Part shown: positions 44,580 to 51,634 of the stretch, one piece after another
Numbering within the stretch: the first letter of the stretch is position 1
How the letters are laid out: the number at the start of each line of letters is the position of its first letter
DNA from: an uncultured cyanobacterium
Lineage (GTDB): Bacteria > Cyanobacteriota > Cyanobacteriia > Phormidesmidales > Phormidesmidaceae
DNA length: 64,000 bases
Direction: 5' to 3'
Assembly: GCA_963793265.1 (NCBI GenBank)
Contig: CAWBZI010000001.1
Location: forward strand, 1,312,001 to 1,376,000
Notes under the pieces: generated by a model
The model's input: only the letters and a program-made list of their open reading frames with translations
What the model was told of the DNA's origin: nothing
Database searches by the model: none
Translations under genes and position numbers: made by a program

Positions 44580-44852
44580 TCACTTAAACTGGCTGTAGTG
44601 ACTACCAATTGCATGAAGATAGACATGCTCATCATCGAAATCATACACAAGACGATCCCGTTTAGAGATTCGTCTAGCCCAAAGACCTGACAGCTCGTAC
44701 TTTAGTGGTTCTGGCTTACCTGAGCCAACGGTTGGATCGCCCCGCAGCATTTCCCCGATCTGCCTGCGCAAAACCCTATGGGCATTTTTATCTTGCTCCC
44801 GTAGTTTTTCGTAAGCTAGCCAGGTACCAGCTTTGAATACTAAATTCCTCAT
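44580..44852 (-). CDS. yoeB: YoeB/Txe family toxin
   Basis: GKPEPLKYELSGLWARRI...DRLVY...HY. Confidence 0.9.
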   Translation of the reverse strand: MRNLVFKAGTWLAYEKLREQDKNAHRVLRRQIGEMLRGDPTVGSGKPEPLKYELSGLWARRISKRDRLVYDFDDEHVYLHAIGSHYSQFK

Positions 44853-45130
44853 TCAGCATTCACTGACAAAATATCGTCTAGTTCTTGCTGAGTGGGAATG
44901 TAGCCGCCTTGAGCACCGGGCGTCTGCCGAGCCGCTCGAATTTGGCTCATTAAGTATGGATCTTGCAGTATGTAAAGCGTCTCTTGCTCGCTCTCCCAGT
45001 CATCAACACTCATCACAATAAAGTCAGTTCCGTTACGGCGAGTTACTCTTAAAGGCTCGTGGCGACTCGCTGATGACTCTACAAATGTTCTCAGATTATC
45101 GCGGAATTTGTTGACGCTAACGCTTTCCAT
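44849..45130 (-). CDS. yefM: YefM/Phd family antitoxin
   Basis: FRDNL...VTRRNG..IVMSVDDWESEQETLYIL; ATGA overlap with the toxin gene. Confidence 0.9.
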   Translation of the reverse strand: MESVSVNKFRDNLRTFVESSASRHEPLRVTRRNGTDFIVMSVDDWESEQETLYILQDPYLMSQIRAARQTPGAQGGYIPTQQELDDILSVNAE

Positions 45131-45175: not shown

Positions 45176-45393
45176 TTAAATAATAGCTTAGATAGCCAAG
45201 AAGTTTATAAACGAGAAGAGATGGTGAAGGTGATAAAGGTCACCCACAGACAGGAATTCTGATGGCTAAGATCAGAACAAGTTTTTTTGATACGGCTGCT
45301 AAAAGTTACGGATTGTCCGTAGAAGCAGCGTAGAAGAATACTATCTTGATCGGCTTAACAGTTGCATCTCTCTCAATTTCTCAAGGAATTTCT

Positions 45394-46077
45394 ATGGCTA
45401 GTAAGGTCACCCCGCTCTACGCTAAAACTCGCATTTTGTTGAACCTATGGGCGTTGGATGAAACGCCCGCTGCCAAATCTCACTTTGTACCCGGTGGTGA
45501 GGCTTACAAAGCGGCGTTAGCGGAGCTGATAAAAGACGATAGTCTTGCAGAAACACCAAAAACTAAGAAGACGAAAGTCTATTCGCTCACGGCGAGCGGG
45601 CAAGACAAGTTAGCAAAGAACTTAGCAGACGAGGCTTTTGCATTTAGCTCAAATATTGGCCCGAAAACGACTAATGCGCTCTTGAGCTGGATAAGAATCA
45701 TCAGAGCCACAGGTTCACAAAATGAGCAAATGAACCAAGCAGCGGCTCAAACCCACGCCGATAGTCAGCCCTCTACCAACGGCAAGGCTTCTCAAATTGA
45801 TTCCTACGACGAATTTACTCAAACAGCTCTAAAAACCTACGATCAGCTCAATCAGGACTACAACCTGGACGACCTAGTACCTATCTATCGAATTCGTCGG
45901 GAAATAGGCGATCGCCTCCCTCGCCAAAAATTCAATGAATGGCTATTAGAAGTGCAGGCCAACGACCTCGTGCAGCTCATGGGCAGCAACCTATCTAACG
46001 TCACCGCCGACCAAATGGAAGACTCTTTGACCATTCCTGGGGCAGGCGCTAGATTCTTTGTGAAGCGGCTATCTTAG
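45394..46077 (+). CDS. Hypothetical protein, probably winged-helix, with an RcaD-like C-terminal domain
   Basis: VYSLTASGQDKL resembles a wHTH wing; C-terminal LVPIYRIRREIG...FNEWLLEVQANDLVQL...RFF. Start placed at ATG 45394. Confidence 0.6.
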   Translation: MASKVTPLYAKTRILLNLWALDETPAAKSHFVPGGEAYKAALAELIKDDSLAETPKTKKTKVYSLTASGQDKLAKNLADEAFAFSSNIGPKTTNALLSWIRIIRATGSQNEQMNQAAAQTHADSQPSTNGKASQIDSYDEFTQTALKTYDQLNQDYNLDDLVPIYRIRREIGDRLPRQKFNEWLLEVQANDLVQLMGSNLSNVTADQMEDSLTIPGAGARFFVKRLS

Positions 46078-46124
46078 CTAGCGTTAAAGCAACAAGCCCA
46101 CCCATCCTTTCAGCTCTAAATATA

Positions 46125-48173
46125 ATGTCTGCTTCCTCAAAAAGCTCTACCGAGTCTGCTATTTTCTCTGCGCTAACCGCAAACAATCCATTTGAAAGAC
46201 CACCCGTTGTAAGAGAACAAAACATCTGGGGCGAATCTTTCCCAGACATTCCTTCCTTGAATGCAAAGGCTTCTGACAGCCTGTTTAATGCGGTAAGTCA
46301 GGTAAGGTCTGCCGACTCCGAACTAGAAAAAATTACCTCGCTTGTCTTTTTGTCCGACCGAGGCGTTGGGAAAAGCCATGTCATCAAGCGTATTCGTAGA
46401 AGACTACAGGCTAGTAGCGAAGGTATTTTTATTTACGCTAGCGCTGACAGATATGGCAACTTAGCGCTGATCAACTCTCTTTTTCAACAGTCTATTGCCG
46501 AAAGTTTGGAGCAGCAAAGCAATGACGGCGTAACGCAATGGCAAGAGATTGCAGCCTTGGTCGTGGCAGACGCCATGAGATCGGTGAATCCTGACGCCAC
46601 CGTGTTGATAGCCTCAGAACTGGTGAAAAAGTTTGACCGAGCCTATCAAAGTAAGCGATCACAGGGCAAAGACTTAGTAAGAGCCTTGGTTAGAGCTATT
46701 CAGAAGCTCGCGGTTCAAAGGCAGTGGCCTAAGACTGATAGCTATATTCTACGAGCGCTGGTCTGGACACTTTCTGAAGAACGCGGATCTTTGGCAGTGA
46801 AATGGTTAGCCGGGGAAGAACTTGGGGCCGAAGACGCCGCTGATCTACGACTACCCCTCAACAATAGAAGCGAAGGCGAAGCGAACGCTTCAGCACCCAC
46901 CGTTGTAGCCAACCTAATTTCTTTGCTTAACGAATACAAAACGGTTGTTATTTGCTTTGATGAGCTGGATACATCGGCAGTTGATGAAGACGGGCGAGAC
47001 GCACCCTACCTGATTTTGAACTTAGTTAAGCGATTGTTTGATTCGGTTAAGCAGTCATCTGGAGCCAAAGGCGTTGTGATTTTGACCTCAGTGCTGCCTG
47101 ATGCCTGGCGTCAGATCAAGCAGTTGCAGATTTCACTACAGAGAATATCTGCCTACGGCGACCCTATCAGCCTGACGTACTTGAACGAAGAAACCGCAAT
47201 AGATTTGTGCGCGCTAACGCTCGGCAGATTTTATGAGAGAAAAGGCTTAAAACCCAGAAATCCAATATATCCGTTCACCCGAGAAGAGATCGCCGCTTTT
47301 GGTAAAGGGAGGCCATCGGCTCGCGAAGCGCTAAAGTGGTTTGCCGCAAAGCTAGACGAAAAACTAAAGACCATTGAACCACCTTCTCTTTCCTATACGG
47401 AGAGGTTTGAGGTAGCTTACCAAAATGCTCTCGATCAGTTCGACATAGACGATCTCGACAATAACGAAGTAACGGCTTCTGCGCTACGGTTTTGCTTTGA
47501 GAAGATAGCAGGCATCGAGAAGACTAAAGAACAGCCGATAGAAGGCGTCGTAATTAAAAGCGTAGAAGATATTACACCTAGATCTAAGAATGATGGTCGG
47601 CTTCACTTTAAGGTACTAGGGGAAGAGGGTGGCGAGTCTGTAGTGGTTGGGCTCGGTGTCATTCAAGAGACGCACGGACTTTCAGTAGGCGCTGGCTTTA
47701 GGCGGCTGCTCGATAAGGAGACATTTGGGCTGTCGCGAGGATGTTTGGTGCGATCACGTGATCGCAAAATCAAGCGCTGTTGGGACTCTTTTGAGTACTA
47801 CCAACAGCTTATTGCCCAGGGCGGCGAATGGGTAGATCTCACCTCCGAAGAGATCAAACCACTGCTAGCGTTGCAATACGTTTACGAACACCACGAAAAG
47901 TTCGATCTCACCGTCAAACGGCTAGATTCTTTTGCCTTCACACGCAAGCTGCTCCAAAGCAATCCACTAATAAAAGAAATCTTGAGCCGCCCAGAAGGCC
48001 ACGTTGTAGAGGAGGCCCTAGAAGGTGATGAGCTTCAGCGCCTCAGCGATACCGTAGATTTGGAAACGCTTGAGACTGATTTGGCCAGCGATTTAGCCAT
48101 TGAAGACAACGATGAGAAAGCGGCTGAAGTTCGAGCCGACCTAGAAGAATTTGCTGAAGCCCTTGCCGTATGA
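46125..48173 (+). CDS. P-loop ATPase (AAA-like)
   Basis: Walker A SDRGVGKSH, Walker B VVICFDELD, PIYPF, R-E-A-L-K-W motif, acidic tail. Confidence 0.8.
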   Translation: MSASSKSSTESAIFSALTANNPFERPPVVREQNIWGESFPDIPSLNAKASDSLFNAVSQVRSADSELEKITSLVFLSDRGVGKSHVIKRIRRRLQASSEGIFIYASADRYGNLALINSLFQQSIAESLEQQSNDGVTQWQEIAALVVADAMRSVNPDATVLIASELVKKFDRAYQSKRSQGKDLVRALVRAIQKLAVQRQWPKTDSYILRALVWTLSEERGSLAVKWLAGEELGAEDAADLRLPLNNRSEGEANASAPTVVANLISLLNEYKTVVICFDELDTSAVDEDGRDAPYLILNLVKRLFDSVKQSSGAKGVVILTSVLPDAWRQIKQLQISLQRISAYGDPISLTYLNEETAIDLCALTLGRFYERKGLKPRNPIYPFTREEIAAFGKGRPSAREALKWFAAKLDEKLKTIEPPSLSYTERFEVAYQNALDQFDIDDLDNNEVTASALRFCFEKIAGIEKTKEQPIEGVVIKSVEDITPRSKNDGRLHFKVLGEEGGESVVVGLGVIQETHGLSVGAGFRRLLDKETFGLSRGCLVRSRDRKIKRCWDSFEYYQQLIAQGGEWVDLTSEEIKPLLALQYVYEHHEKFDLTVKRLDSFAFTRKLLQSNPLIKEILSRPEGHVVEEALEGDELQRLSDTVDLETLETDLASDLAIEDNDEKAAEVRADLEEFAEALAV

Positions 48174-49579
48174 CGATTCTCAACATTTCACTATGCCTAC
48201 CTGAGCTAGATGTTGCGGCGCTGTCTCAGGCGTCGCAGGGCCGTTCTATTGTGGCGATGACCCAGCGGTTTATTGTCCCTGACAAATCGTTCGCACTGCT
48301 CCCGTGTCAGCATCTAGCTGATGATTTGCAGCCCGAGGCTCTGTACCAGGATCGCGTACTCAAAGAACTAGCGCCGCTTAGGTTAGCCAGCGACGAGCCA
48401 GCAATCACAACACACTGGGCTGAGTGCGTATTTTGTCAGCAAATTGTGGATGAGGATGCGATTACAGCGCTAGGCGATCACACCATTTGGAAAACAGAAG
48501 CCCTACTGCATCACCTGCAAACCCACGGCAAGCTATTTCTCTCTTTTCTAAGGGTCTACGAACTGCCTCAAGCGATCGCAATATCAACCGCACCCGTCTG
48601 TGAGCAGCTTTATAAATTCCTACCGTTACCACAATATTTAGAAGTCAGCACTCAAGCCCCAGTTCTAGACGCTGACGAATTCACTGCTGCCAAACAAGCC
48701 GTGCTTGAACCGACAGAAAGAGCGATCGCGCCGCCTAATATCCCAGACGAACATGACATCCCAGCAGATGAAACAGACATTTTAGATGATCCTGACTGGG
48801 TATCGAAGATATCCGAAGTCGGACACTCTAGCGATGGACACACTTTTGAAAAATTAGTCAGAAAAGGACTCATAGAATTGGGATTCAGCAACTCGTCAGA
48901 GCAGTTAACCGCTAGCCTGGATCCTAAAGCAACAGGCGGCGCAGGCGGATTAGATTTTTACGCCGATTTGCCTTATAAAGTTGTCGGTGAATGTAAAGCC
49001 AGTAAGAAAAAAGTAATCAACAGCGATGCGGCTACTCAGTTGGTTAGGCTAGGACTTCAAAATCTACAGCACGACGAGTATCCGAACTGCATCAAAATAG
49101 TTGTAGCTGCAGGGAGACTAACGGCAAAAGCAAATCAAATTGCTGAGGGACATCGCATTAATATCATCCGCCCCGAAGTTATGCAACAGCTAGTAAATAG
49201 TAAGCTAACGCTCGAAAACGACTTTGATCTGTTTCAACTCAAAGGTTCTTTAGAATCAGAGCCTTTTGGCGAAGCAGCCAATCAAAAAATCAACCAATAT
49301 GTAGACTGGTGCCTCGCTGAGTGGACAGAAAGGAAGGAGTACAAACAGCTTGTTCAGCAGGCAGTCAATACATTAAAGGAACTCTCAGAGCAGCCAATCG
49401 CTTCACAATCCGAGGATTTCTCAGTCAAAGAGATTCGGGCACATCACAACGCTAAATATCAGCCAATTGTTAAAACTGCTAGAATGGCTCGAATTTTAGA
49501 AAACCAGTATATTCAGGGCAGTCTTATCAACAAAAGAACTCACACAGATGGCTCTATTGGCTACTATCTAAAGAGCTAG
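48170..49579 (+). CDS. DUF1802-like domain fused to an Mrr-like PD-(D/E)xK endonuclease
   Basis: N-terminal HTIW...FLRVYELP; C-terminal FEKLV...LGF...GGLDF...VVGECK; ATGA overlap with the ATPase gene. Confidence 0.75.
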   Translation: MTILNISLCLPELDVAALSQASQGRSIVAMTQRFIVPDKSFALLPCQHLADDLQPEALYQDRVLKELAPLRLASDEPAITTHWAECVFCQQIVDEDAITALGDHTIWKTEALLHHLQTHGKLFLSFLRVYELPQAIAISTAPVCEQLYKFLPLPQYLEVSTQAPVLDADEFTAAKQAVLEPTERAIAPPNIPDEHDIPADETDILDDPDWVSKISEVGHSSDGHTFEKLVRKGLIELGFSNSSEQLTASLDPKATGGAGGLDFYADLPYKVVGECKASKKKVINSDAATQLVRLGLQNLQHDEYPNCIKIVVAAGRLTAKANQIAEGHRINIIRPEVMQQLVNSKLTLENDFDLFQLKGSLESEPFGEAANQKINQYVDWCLAEWTERKEYKQLVQQAVNTLKELSEQPIASQSEDFSVKEIRAHHNAKYQPIVKTARMARILENQYIQGSLINKRTHTDGSIGYYLKS

Positions 49580-49640: not shown

Positions 49641-50090
49641 ATGAAAAAGTCCTCACTCTACGAAGCCGACTTTTACGCCTGGACTCAAGAGCAGTCTAAG
49701 CTGATTGCGCTGGGAAAATGGCAGGGACTAGATGCTGCAAATCTAGTAGAGGAAATCGAATCGTTGGGCCGCAAAGAACGTCAGGAACTCAGGAATCGGC
49801 TGGGCATCTTGATCGGTCATTTGTTGAAGTGGCAGTTTCAACCCGGCCAAAAGAGTAATAGCTGGAGCAATAGCTGGCGCGGCACTATTCGCGAGCAAAG
49901 AAAACAGATTAATTTACTCATTAAAGATAGCCCTAGCCTTAAGCCATATCTAAAGGAAGCGTTGAATGATGCTTATGACTTGGGTATTTCGTTAGCCATT
50001 AAGGAAACGCAGCTATCAGAGGAAACCTTGCCAGACACCTGCCCGTATCGATTAAGTGATATTTTAGAACCTGGATTTTTACCTACTTAA
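49641..50090 (+). CDS. DUF29 family protein
   Basis: LYEADFYAW, NLVEEIESLGR, HLLKWQFQP, SPSLK, PDTCPY. Confidence 0.9.
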   Translation: MKKSSLYEADFYAWTQEQSKLIALGKWQGLDAANLVEEIESLGRKERQELRNRLGILIGHLLKWQFQPGQKSNSWSNSWRGTIREQRKQINLLIKDSPSLKPYLKEALNDAYDLGISLAIKETQLSEETLPDTCPYRLSDILEPGFLPT

Positions 50091-50167
50091 GGCGCTGCTA
50101 CGTGAGGATTAGAGAACCGTCGATATTAACGGCGTACTCTATGATTGAGGAAAGCGAGGTAACTGTT

Positions 50168-50434
50168 ATGAACCAGCAGCAGATTGAGGCGATCGCGCAA
50201 ACTATCAGCACCCTGTCCGACGAGGATAGGCAAGCATTAGAGCAGACACTACAGCAATCAAACGGTTCAGGTTCAACTGAACAAACTAACAACGCACGAG
50301 AAGTACCCGAACAAGAGACACTTAGCGACTTTTTTGAAGCGGTAAAAGCGATTCGAGTCGAAGGCGGCCCCCCAGATTGGTCGAGTAGAATAAACGACTA
50401 CTTAAACGAAGATGCTGTTTCAGAGCATGACTAA
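50168..50434 (+). CDS. Putative antitoxin of the PIN toxin
   Basis: Small acidic ORF ending GPPDWSSRINDYL; overlaps the PIN gene start. Confidence 0.6.
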   Translation: MNQQQIEAIAQTISTLSDEDRQALEQTLQQSNGSGSTEQTNNAREVPEQETLSDFFEAVKAIRVEGGPPDWSSRINDYLNEDAVSEHD

Positions 50435-50843
50435 GGTTTTTCTGGATTCGGCCTACTTGATTGCACTGGTGTCTACCTCAGACAAATTTCATTTAAAAGC
50501 GAACCAACTTTCTCGCTGGCTAATTGATAGCCAAGTCGAAATCGTGACGACCCGAGCAGTTTTATTAGAAGTCGGCAACGCCTTATCAAAAGAACGCTAT
50601 CGTCACATCGCAGTCGAACTTCTAAGCAGGATAGAGAGAAATATCAACATTGAGATTGTGCCACTGTCAGAGCGCCTGTATACAGAAGCTGTAGCGCTAT
50701 TCAAATCTCGCTCGGACAAAGAATGGGGTCTTGTTGACTGCGTGTCTTATGTCGCGATGACCGAGCAGGGCATCACTCAAGTGCTAACCTCTGATAAGCA
50801 TTTTAAGCAAATGGGATTTGAAGCAATGCTTTTAGATGATTAG
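50427..50843 (+). CDS. vapC: PIN-domain (VapC-like) toxin
   Basis: FLDSAYLIAL, E in VLLEV, WGLVDCVSY, TSDKHF. Confidence 0.88.
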   Translation: MTKVFLDSAYLIALVSTSDKFHLKANQLSRWLIDSQVEIVTTRAVLLEVGNALSKERYRHIAVELLSRIERNINIEIVPLSERLYTEAVALFKSRSDKEWGLVDCVSYVAMTEQGITQVLTSDKHFKQMGFEAMLLDD

Positions 50844-50923: not shown

Positions 50924-51634
50924 ATGACCAACTCCACCCTTGATGATAAAACGGTAGTCCGCGACTATTTCAACGCGACGGGCTTCGATCGCTGGAAGCG
51001 CATTTATGGCGACGGTGAAGTAAATAAGGTGCAGGTGAATATTCGCGCCGGGCACCAAAAGACGATTGATAATGTGCTCGAATGGTTCGCTGAAGATGGC
51101 GATTTGTCGCAAATGACGGTGTGCGATGCGGGGTGTGGGGTGGGGAGCCTGGCGATTCCATTAGCGAAGATGGGGGCGAAGGTGTATGCCAGCGATATTT
51201 CTGAGAAGATGGCGGGTGAGGCGGACGTGCGGGCCAAAGCTGAGCTAGCAGATGTGCTGAGCGCTGAGCAAATGCCTGAGTTTGAGGCGAAGGATTTGGA
51301 GGCGATTGAGGGCAGCTATCATACGGTGGTGTGCTTGGACGTGCTGATTCACTATCCGCAGGAGAAGGCGGACAATATGGTGAAGCACCTCAGCTCGCTG
51401 GCTACCGACCGGGTAATTATGAGCTTTGCACCGAAGACCTGCTTTTATGCCACGCTTAAAAAGGTAGGAGACTTTTTTCCGGGGCCGAGTAAGGCGACGC
51501 GGGCCTATTTGCACAGAGAGTCGGATGTGGTGAAAGCGCTGGAGGCAAATGGCTGGGTAATTGGAAGGCGATCGCTCAACAAAGCCCCCTTCTATTTCTC
51601 TCGTTTGCTCGAAGCCACCCGTCCTAGCACATAA
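50924..51634 (+). CDS. chlM: Mg-protoporphyrin IX methyltransferase
   Basis: YFNATGFDRWKRIYG, DAGCGVG, CLDVLIHYP, SFAPKT, ATRAYLH. Confidence 0.96.
   Translation: MTNSTLDDKTVVRDYFNATGFDRWKRIYGDGEVNKVQVNIRAGHQKTIDNVLEWFAEDGDLSQMTVCDAGCGVGSLAIPLAKMGAKVYASDISEKMAGEADVRAKAELADVLSAEQMPEFEAKDLEAIEGSYHTVVCLDVLIHYPQEKADNMVKHLSSLATDRVIMSFAPKTCFYATLKKVGDFFPGPSKATRAYLHRESDVVKALEANGWVIGRRSLNKAPFYFSRLLEATRPST

Follow-up and report, generated by a model that had tools for sequence, protein, structure and literature searches.

A predicted three-subunit, methylase-free anti-phage nuclease operon of filamentous cyanobacteria

Introduction

Do three adjacent cyanobacterial genes, encoding a protein with an RcaD-like C-terminus, a P-loop ATPase and a DUF1802-containing nuclease, form a defence system? 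The question is raised by positions 45394–49579 of the window (the whole 64,000-nucleotide stretch of DNA from an uncultured cyanobacterium analysed here), which an initial annotation read as an ATPase-driven, possibly modification-sensing module. RcaD and RcaG have long been filed under light-colour regulation. The available part of PMC2799420 presents RcaD as a promoter-binding regulator; it binds the cpc2 promoter, reportedly with help from RcaG. Promoter DNA was used there to pull down two Lyngbya relatives, and an RcaD-like protein bound unrelated DNA too.

Results

Organization and distribution of the operon

The three genes are all transcribed rightwards (forward strand), as initially annotated. 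The first, G1 (45394–46077), encodes 227 aa from an ATG, with an alternative TTG start upstream at 45346 giving 243 aa; it is separated by 47 bp from the ATPase gene (46125–48173; 682 aa), which overlaps the nuclease gene (48170–49579; 469 aa) by the ATGA at 48170–48173. A scan for promoters and terminators returned no more sites than in shuffled sequence. A divergent YefM-YoeB toxin-antitoxin pair lies upstream (44580–45130, reverse strand) and a DUF29 gene, a small gene and a PIN-domain gene lie downstream (49641–50843, forward strand); both groups are outside the conserved operon, whose flanks vary between genomes. The earlier statement that no methyltransferase is nearby holds for DNA methyltransferases and fails for methyltransferases in general, as the gene at 50924–51634, 1.3 kb downstream of the operon, encodes the Mg-protoporphyrin IX methyltransferase of the chlorophyll pathway. 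At 34 loci, 74 proteins representing 124 flanking ORFs (two per side, at least 120 aa) included no DNA methyltransferase, and none of PglX, PglZ, SspD or DndC occurs among these or the window neighbours.

Across 401 sampled genomes there are 72 strong G1 sites, and 69 of them have all three genes together in the same order, a linkage far exceeding chance; in one genome a PLD-SNF2 helicase gene comes after G1 instead. The operon was not found in the majority of the 401 genomes, the two other members of the window's family among them, and its prevalence is high in two families (22/25 and 33/45 genomes). It is single-copy and almost fixed in some groups (19/19 genomes in g5 and 8/8 in g29). A defence-island setting was considered and rejected, the flanks being largely housekeeping genes with scattered toxin-antitoxin genes. 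Mobility genes are absent from most flanks, and a search of plasmids with the G1 C-terminal domain (CTD) gave no match.

Predicted architecture of the three proteins

The G1 alignment has two conserved blocks, corresponding to an N-terminal domain (residues 10–100; 45421–45693, forward strand) that is probably a winged helix, and the RcaD-like CTD (residues 133–227; 45790–46074, forward strand). Winged-helix matches are weak, with PadR at E 0.027 for G1, and DUF6293_C and SelB-wing in 6 and 4 of 38 relatives respectively; from its sequence G1 is probably a two-domain winged-helix-type protein. An ESM Atlas search with G1 matched unnamed cyanobacterial clusters only, sequence searches of solved structures with the three protein alignments and the G1-CTD gave weak rows only, and hhalign among seven domains found no internal homology. 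The similarity to RcaD noted initially is real and resides in the CTD, but it falls short of identity: G1 and one RcaD-named protein are 25% identical over 153 aa (19% for the ATPases), and the G1-CTD profile finds RcaD-type proteins (270–325 aa among those so named) at no better than E 1e-7 to 1e-9. By these comparisons G1 is a distant RcaD paralogue, not RcaD itself.

The ATPase contains the Walker A (SDRGVGKSH) and Walker B (ICFDELD) motifs reported earlier, with K83 and D279 conserved in 53/53 aligned relatives and E280 in 43/53. Its model (pLDDT 89.6) has an AAA+ module at approximately residues 15–420, and its top structural rows are Cdc6/Orc1/TnsC at Z 13–14.7, led by Cdc6 7jgr_G (Z 14.7, rmsd 3.3, 241 aligned) with TnsC at Z 13.0–14.5, and BrxC also matches (Z 11.4–12.5). 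The modelled fold thus places it in the ORC/Cdc6/TnsC clade of AAA+ proteins. An alpha/beta domain follows at residues 445–625 (47457–47999, forward strand), whose modelled order of helices and strands is restriction-nuclease-like and in which the ExK motif is absent; it is probably an inactive REase. Aligning this C-terminal domain with the nuclease domain by hhalign gave no match, and an ESM Atlas search with the C-terminal part gave nothing above 0.9.

The nuclease model (pLDDT 92.1) consists of a DUF1802/ASCH-like domain, a flexible linker, a PD-(D/E)xK domain, a long helix and a winged helix. DUF1802 (residues 8–176, E 2.4e-20; 48179–48709, forward strand) is predicted to have the PUA/ASCH-like fold proposed at the outset: residues 3–163 match the ASCH protein CXorf40A (6kir_A; Z 10.0, rmsd 3.2, 136 aligned), Foldseek rows include the ZmASCH and TRIP4 ASCH domains at E ~0.01, and the best viral row is also an ASCH protein (E 1.6e-3). 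The top Foldseek row is MspJI (E 2.4e-3). An Mrr_cat match at residues 221–334 (E 4.5e-4) scores 20.8 bits, slightly below the cut-off of 21. The PD-(D/E)xK domain (48782–49219, forward strand) finds structural support, with residues 204–386 matching N.BspD6I (Z 12.8, rmsd 3.2, 174 aligned), FokI (Z 12.4, rmsd 2.7, 144) and R.BspD6I2 (Z 12.0, rmsd 3.3, 158). The C-terminal winged helix (49331–49576, forward strand) gives many winged-helix rows at Z 9–11 over residues 388–469. The signature noted in the initial annotation as intact, E227-D262-E274-K276, is indeed so, and is conserved in 114/114 aligned rows (our own selection from search results) and in 63/63 operon nucleases; in the two full-length paralogues inspected that stand alone, E227 and K276 have been lost. 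The models identify the protein as a predicted fusion of ASCH-like, PD-(D/E)xK and winged-helix domains.

Exchange of alleles at fixed sites

Within genus g5 the G1 N-terminus has a median identity of 93%, versus 41–52% for the parts of the ATPase and 53% for the REase, and 16 loci contain five ATPase and three REase classes that are common across genera and freely combined. Loci L036 and L032 align at 91–97% on both sides of an ATPase that does not align, and alleles of 25–50% identity are exchanged at a single site within a genus. From these sequence patterns, ATPase and nuclease alleles are swapped independently at fixed chromosomal sites.

The last 37 residues of G1, an allele-specific 'wing' (residues 191–227; 45964–46074, forward strand), track the ATPase allele at 47 of 49 loci and at 46 of 48 new metagenome loci. 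The N-terminal domain follows the genus, its nearest other-genus relative being of the same ATPase class in only 9/49. This covariation could be plain linkage; the match to ATPase class rises along G1 from 9 to 31 to 47 of 49, a gradient that fits linkage too. The DUF1802 part of the nuclease also co-varies with the ATPase allele, which is compatible with an adaptor role as well. A complex prediction for the G1-CTD with the ATPase scored 0.52, compared with 0.00 for the best control; the mark for such predictions is reached by 116 of 157 solved pairs and 2 of 215 mismatched pairs, with 18 of the solved and both mismatched pairs standing at or below 0.60. The prediction runs share at least 89% of contacts, with a partner pLDDT of 85, and lend weak support to predicted binding of the ATPase by the G1-CTD.

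Copies of the G1 C-terminal domain in phages

Tandem pairs of G1-CTD copies are present in all ten viral loci fetched, representing about five phage types, and in ORF078R of cyanophage PaV-LD, and neither the ATPase nor the nuclease accompanies them. Copies are fused to portal, head protease and minor head proteins, and P0239 combines portal, InPase and G1-CTD; the carriers are rich in lysine, one group of them having a fused Dps/ferritin domain. The ATPase was confirmed in 0 of 83 candidate stretches of viral contigs, and the best 80 metagenome matches comprised host loci only, with no CTD-only proteins. Literature on PaV-LD structural proteins yielded no proteomics for ORF078R, and titles and abstract starts, covering few subscription journals, contained nothing about the G1-CTD domain as a cyanophage mimic or decoy.

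When the best copy per non-host protein is taken, the wing is better kept than the body in 26/34, versus 31/59 in hosts; across all 57 copies the excess is not significant (p 0.16). A single origin of 56 non-host copies is rejected (p-AU 0.016) on a broad set that includes proteins of unproven viral nature, and is not rejected on the strict set of viral-contig or head-annotated rows (22 vs 30 rows, p-AU 0.072). Class assignment of the phage copies is loose because the median likeness between host wings of different classes is already 51%. The wider set of non-host copies spans several host allele types, which suggests that they may act as decoys. Mimicry of RcaD by the second phage copy was considered and rejected, since 0/86 rows scored higher with the RcaD profile.

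Relationship to described systems

PADLOC assigned no family to the window proteins, BREX and Ssp models included, or to any of 20/20 nucleases, and ATPase relatives gave only matches with E above 1e-4; the DS41_1 model of DS-41 scored 18.9 bits against a cut-off of 370. No PADLOC system matches the operon; the broader claim that it matches no described system was too strong. One sentence in section 22 of PMC10853773 (Rakesh et al.) predicts an unnamed defence operon of Orc/Cdc6, ASCH-REase and DndG-like winged-helix proteins, and the locus described here has an Orc/Cdc6-clade ATPase, an ASCH-fused REase and a probable winged-helix protein in common with it, and no methylase is named for it. 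It is most likely the same kind of operon, though the predicted one has a triple winged helix and 'mobile' neighbourhoods, in place of a 227-aa G1 with two conserved domains at fixed chromosomal sites. The main text of PMC10853773, in the part available, makes no mention of cyanobacteria, RcaD, RcaG, DUF1802, mimics or decoys.

The Orc/Cdc6-HerA/FtsK 'capture' systems of PMC10853773 similarly combine a winged-helix gene, a related ATPase and a nuclease, and share the C-terminal domain of the first protein; an inactive REase plus a winged helix at the C-terminus after the AAA+ module are stated for these FtsK-linked kin. In the third position they have an exonuclease-PD-(D/E)xK-FtsK fusion in place of an ASCH-REase, and identity between the systems is only 19–25%; no such fusion was found in the window's genome by tblastn, and the three operon proteins have no HerA/FtsK family match. 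On our reading the capture systems include RcaD/RcaG-type operons. RcaD-named genes are followed by an ATPase gene and in 11/15 loci by a PD-(D/E)xK-FtsK fusion, in most cases with a 3'-5' exonuclease ahead of it. From this arrangement RcaD and RcaG probably also belong to defence, which sharpens the earlier suggestion to that effect. Like the gene for the putatively DNA-binding G1, the rcaD gene of Calothrix PCC 7601 encodes a DNA-binding protein and precedes an ATPase gene (PMC2799420, available part), whereas G1 is a shorter (227 vs ~285 aa), distant paralogue and the third gene differs.

PUA-superfamily modification-dependent restriction enzymes (the TspA15I, YenY4I and ScoA3V groups, PMC6765204; also MspJI) likewise place a PUA/ASCH-like domain before the nuclease with no DNA methyltransferase nearby, but are single proteins, while the nuclease here comes together with G1 and an AAA+ ATPase. 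BREX (BrxA/B/C) and Ssp (SspB/SspC) also pair a winged-helix protein with an Orc/Cdc6-clade ATPase; unlike in BREX, Ssp and Dnd, none of the flanks examined carries a gene for a methyltransferase, PglZ or sulfur modification. The phage protein P0239, joining portal and InPase to the G1-CTD, resembles the polyvalent phage proteins, in which cargo domains are fused to portal, MuF or InPase and presumed injected; the accessible portion of PMC5512222 reports a paucity of these in cyanobacteria and does not describe the G1-CTD.

Discussion

We consider it likely that the operon serves filamentous cyanobacteria as an anti-phage nuclease system of three subunits and without a methylase. An anti-virus role is suspected because parts are swapped between strains and cyanophages carry copies of one part; the ATPase–nuclease module proposed initially is conserved, and its defence role is a prediction. 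A literature search covering few subscription journals found no experiment on the operon.

TnsD, TnsC and TnsAB form a selector-adaptor-cutter chain, and by analogy the operon appears to be built similarly. G1 would bind DNA at low specificity, and its CTD would load the matching ATPase, which would oligomerise on DNA with ATP; the inactive-REase-like domain of the ATPase would then engage the ASCH-like domain of the nuclease and license cutting. Self DNA would be spared because cutting requires assembly or a foreign mark. The trigger may be modified bases read by the ASCH-like domain, a tentative proposal from the predicted fold; a DNA structure (ends or replication forms) and a phage protein are, taken together, somewhat more likely. 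The phage double-CTD proteins would most likely be brought in along with the phage DNA and tie up the ATPase as allele-matched decoys.

Counting against defence are the housekeeping neighbourhoods, the near-fixed single copy, the weak complex prediction, a single phage origin that the strict set does not reject and the regulator role described for the sister protein RcaD.

Three other explanations account for parts of these data. In a selfish addiction or homing-like cassette, without anti-phage benefit, the nuclease would kill or cut any cell whose G1-ATPase pair is lost or mismatched, which would keep the operon at one site and drive allele turnover, consistent with the fixed site, swapped alleles and inactive stand-alone nucleases; this reading is unlikely, leaving the phage G1-CTD copies unexplained and sitting poorly with the scarcity of mobility genes. 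Quite improbable is a housekeeping role in DNA transactions, whether repair, resolution or the handling of chromosomes in polyploid filamentous cells. Here G1 and the Cdc6-like ATPase would guide a structure-specific nuclease to DNA that is damaged or branched, and the G1 domain taken up by phages would serve generically to bind or condense DNA. Single copy, fixed sites, the prevalence in two families, general nucleic acid binding by ASCH relatives (TRIP4-dsDNA rows) and the lysine-rich, in one group Dps/ferritin-fused, phage carriers agree with it, but the exchange of such divergent alleles at one site, the failure to find the operon in most sampled genomes, and broken ATPase genes at 3/62 loci and further broken operons (L099 and L101) do not. 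That G1, homologous to RcaD, is an ATPase-aided regulator acting on promoters with the nuclease gene as passenger is very doubtful despite the reported promoter binding and pull-downs, given a linked nuclease with an intact active site, RcaD-like binding of unrelated DNA, and the nuclease-FtsK fusion behind RcaD-named genes.

Returning to an anti-phage nuclease system, we tentatively propose that it is allele-diversified, the loader and ATPase forming a lock with several keys that injected, host-matched tandem mimics jam, and that the sister RcaD/RcaG would be part of an anti-invader nuclease-FtsK machine. While the architecture was already predicted (PMC10853773), allele swapping with wing-ATPase tracking, phage tandem CTD copies and the RcaD/RcaG-defence link are new here. 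If this is correct, few defence systems would be more widespread than the operon in Nostocales and Oscillatoriales-type cyanobacteria, which form blooms and build soil crusts; its position outside defence islands would be why current catalogues missed it. In the phage copies there would be a ready counter-defence to test, along with naturally matched and mismatched partners for studying the loading of Cdc6/TnsC-like ATPases, and the actual role of RcaD and RcaG, an old loose end, would become testable.

Protein products of the operon

All features described in the initial annotation (three open reading frames, a 47-bp gap, an ATGA overlap and the sequence motifs) are present in the sequence as claimed. 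Pfam assigns the ATPase to AAA_16 (E 8.5e-8) and the nuclease to DUF1802 (E 2.4e-20) with a marginal Mrr_cat match (20.8 bits against a cut-off of 21), and the sole match of the first protein, G1, is PadR (E 0.027). Sub-threshold NCBIfam matches are to Sll1717-type ATPases and DS41_1. PADLOC, proposed as a check, matches none of the window proteins. The G+C content of the operon (0.465-0.488) is slightly below that of the genome (~0.51). A YefM-YoeB pair lies upstream (window 44580-45130), with DUF29 and an antitoxin-like and PIN gene pair downstream (49641-50843).

In the G1 alignment two blocks are conserved and the linker between them is variable; both blocks are probably winged helices, judging from weak profile matches. 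We refer to residues 10-100 as the N-terminus, 133-227 as the C-terminal domain (CTD) and 191-227 as its wing. A predicted complex of the G1 CTD with the ATPase receives weak support (0.52, versus 0.00 for the best control).

The ATPase model (pLDDT 89.6) groups with Cdc6/Orc1, TnsC, MuB and BrxC (Z 11-14.7). Its residues 445-625 are modelled as helix-three strands-helix-strand-helix-strand, an order that we read as typical of restriction nucleases; the segment lacks an ExK motif, and no search confirmed that fold for it. The Walker B glutamate is replaced by Q in seven ATPases (loci L065-L069, L047 and L052) and by R in three lone paralogues. ATPase relatives without G1 or nuclease occur at L058, L059, L061, L062 and L070, with a vWA/TerF-like gene 3' of the ATPase in four of the five (one domain-scanned). 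Two tandem ATPase genes precede one nuclease at L051 and L161, the latter also having two G1 genes, and these are possibly carriers of two alleles. The ATPase gene is interrupted or missing in operons L011, L041, L060, L099 and L101.

The nuclease model (pLDDT 92.1) has three parts: an ASCH part (residues 3-163; CXorf40A, an ASCH protein, Z 10.0, rmsd 3.2, 136 aligned), a catalytic part (204-386) and a winged helix (388-469; Z 9-11). The catalytic part takes the anticipated restriction-type fold, matching the catalytic domains of N.BspD6I (Z 12.8) and FokI (Z 12.4); Foldseek alone returned no row at E <=0.001 for the nuclease model, its list being headed by MspJI, BspD6I and ASCH proteins. The active site is intact in all 63 operon nucleases inspected and lost in both stand-alone full-length paralogues, at L031 8044-9540 (G000:C5), in the window's own genome, and at L100 4568-6028. 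An ADP-ribosylglycohydrolase-like gene lies within a few kb of both dead paralogues (by inspection), and likewise of operon L033 (Pfam).

Distribution and linkage

The ATPase, the G1 CTD and the nuclease are each found in 77 of 401 genomes sampled across the phylum, and are concentrated in two families (22/25 and 33/45 genomes for the ATPase). The best 80 loci from the genome collection, as named, comprise 75 from photosynthetic cyanobacteria, one from Obscuribacterales, one from an Acetobacteraceae bin and three without taxon. The linkage set comprised 72 sites with a strong G1 match (a further 14, weak or fragmentary, were set aside), 74 full-length nuclease sites (8 partial left out) and 80 ATPase sites (5 weak left out). 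The proposed three-gene unit recurs in other genomes, with all three genes together at 69 of the 72 G1 sites; of the remaining three, two are next to the end of a contig and the third has a PLD-SNF2 helicase gene instead. At L098 (5657-9873) such a gene follows G1 where the ATPase and nuclease would be expected, as though the site had been taken over by a different defence gene. The initial statement that no methyltransferase lies nearby needs amending, as one is encoded 1.3 kb downstream of the window operon; it is a Mg-protoporphyrin enzyme. Proteins flanking the operons are mostly housekeeping and include no DNA methyltransferase.

Exchange of alleles

Comparison of 59 intact loci (three with broken ATPases left out) reveals three mutually independent similarity blocks: the G1 N-terminus; the wing, the ATPase and, more loosely, DUF1802; and, as the third, the REase plus the adjoining winged helix. 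Within one genus, g5, median identity is 93% for the G1 N-terminus, 41-52% for parts of the ATPase and 53% for the REase, and its 16 loci include five ATPase and three REase allele classes. The three large REase classes are each paired with ATPase classes 0-4 and each occur in six to ten genera. The DNA of L036 and L032 aligns at 91-97% identity until G1 ends, resumes aligning at this level from within the nuclease gene, and does not align in the interval.

The nearest relative from another genus had the same ATPase class in 47 of 49 cases by the wing, 31 by the CTD body, 9 by the G1 N-terminus, 35 by DUF1802 and 11 by the REase, and in a fresh set of metagenome loci, the class of the wing equalled that of the ATPase in 46/48, and the class of the N-terminus did so in 17/48 (14 loci whose ATPase could not be assigned to a class were left out); such class counts are not statistical tests, because kin are not independent. 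Linkage alone could produce this covariation of wing and ATPase, and the spacer between them gives a hint to the contrary: by eye, L007 (class 0) and L025 (class 2) are more alike there than L025 and L032 (both class 2).

Phage copies of the G1 CTD

The N-terminal domain is undetected in 71 of the best 150 G1 profile matches, 35 of which have two CTD copies. The CTD-only proteins include fusions to a portal protein plus InPase, to a head maturation protease and to a minor head protein, as well as to virion-protein or GNAT-like domains or ferritin. In each of ten IMG/VR loci, representing about five phage types, one protein carries two copies of the CTD, and neither the ATPase nor the nuclease is encoded nearby; the CTD gene is in or beside head or tail modules in seven (by inspection), and its product is ferritin-fused in the other three. 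ORF078R of the isolated Planktothrix phage PaV-LD also has two copies, likewise without ATPase or nuclease, and lies five genes downstream of that for the major head protein. No viral contig was found to carry the ATPase.

A tree of 30 host and 56 non-host domains shows eight changes of the host/non-host label (bootstrap 7-9), and in it copies from L073, L074, L076 and L078 adjoin the window's own CTD (93/82, unstarred; 49-55% identical). A single origin of non-host copies is rejected on the broad set (p-AU 0.016) and not rejected when the set is restricted to the 22 rows that come from viral contigs or carry a head annotation (p-AU 0.072). Judged by the best copy of each protein, the wing is better kept than the body in 26 of 34 non-host proteins, compared with 31 of 59 hosts; when all 57 copies are counted, they do not differ significantly from hosts. 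We interpret the phage proteins as injected decoys, with generic DNA binding as a possible alternative.

A clade of 11 phage-side copies (e.g. the second copy of L072) has no close host relative in the set and may match an unsampled host allele. L072 and L082 (PaV-LD ORF078R-081R and 085R) encode several paralogues sharing an N-terminal domain and cysteine motif, with differing C-terminal cargo (G1-CTD, ADP-ribosyltransferase-like and others), possibly a virion-loading signal family.

Relationship to RcaD and RcaG

The G1-CTD profile also recovers a second family of 270-325 aa, for which NCBI names eight of ten clusters looked up 'transcription factor RcaD'. The RcaD likeness noted initially holds at the level of the CTD profile and is distant in sequence, with G1 only 25% and the window ATPase only 19% identical to one RcaD-type pair. 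All 15 RcaD-type loci fetched have a related ATPase gene next, followed in 11 (nine by domain scan, two by 79-85% identity) by a PD-(D/E)xK-FtsK fusion, and in most of these a 3'-5' exonuclease comes first; at a twelfth locus there is a fragment. This is the Orc/Cdc6-HerA/FtsK arrangement in the portion of PMC10853773 consulted. In excerpts of PMC2799420, of two Lyngbya proteins the RcaD-like one bound DNA without specificity, and the second, with relatives of 217-245 aa such as All4300, is only 22% like RcaD; from its size and identity, we infer that the second would be a G1 protein.

Standing of the system

One sentence in the same portion of PMC10853773 describes operons that combine an ASCH-REase with an Orc/Cdc6 ATPase and a DndG-like triple winged-helix protein, with a predicted counter-invader role. 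The window operon is most likely of this kind; what G1 shows of the winged-helix component is two conserved blocks with weak winged-helix matches. The initial view that the operon matches no named system stands for PADLOC and goes too far in that the kind was already predicted. The portions consulted of PMC12839542, PMC12707154, PMC13092281 and PMC5512222 yielded no description of the operon. The system is real, widespread and already predicted, and we consider a defence role likely. PUA-superfamily nuclease fusions are often modification-dependent, according to the part of PMC6765204 consulted, and within the defence reading modification sensing is a tentative proposal, somewhat short of an even chance. 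No earlier description of the allele structure, the phage copies or the RcaD/RcaG link was found in the literature searched. Most of the interest lies in these three features, the operon as such being a variant of an already predicted kind.
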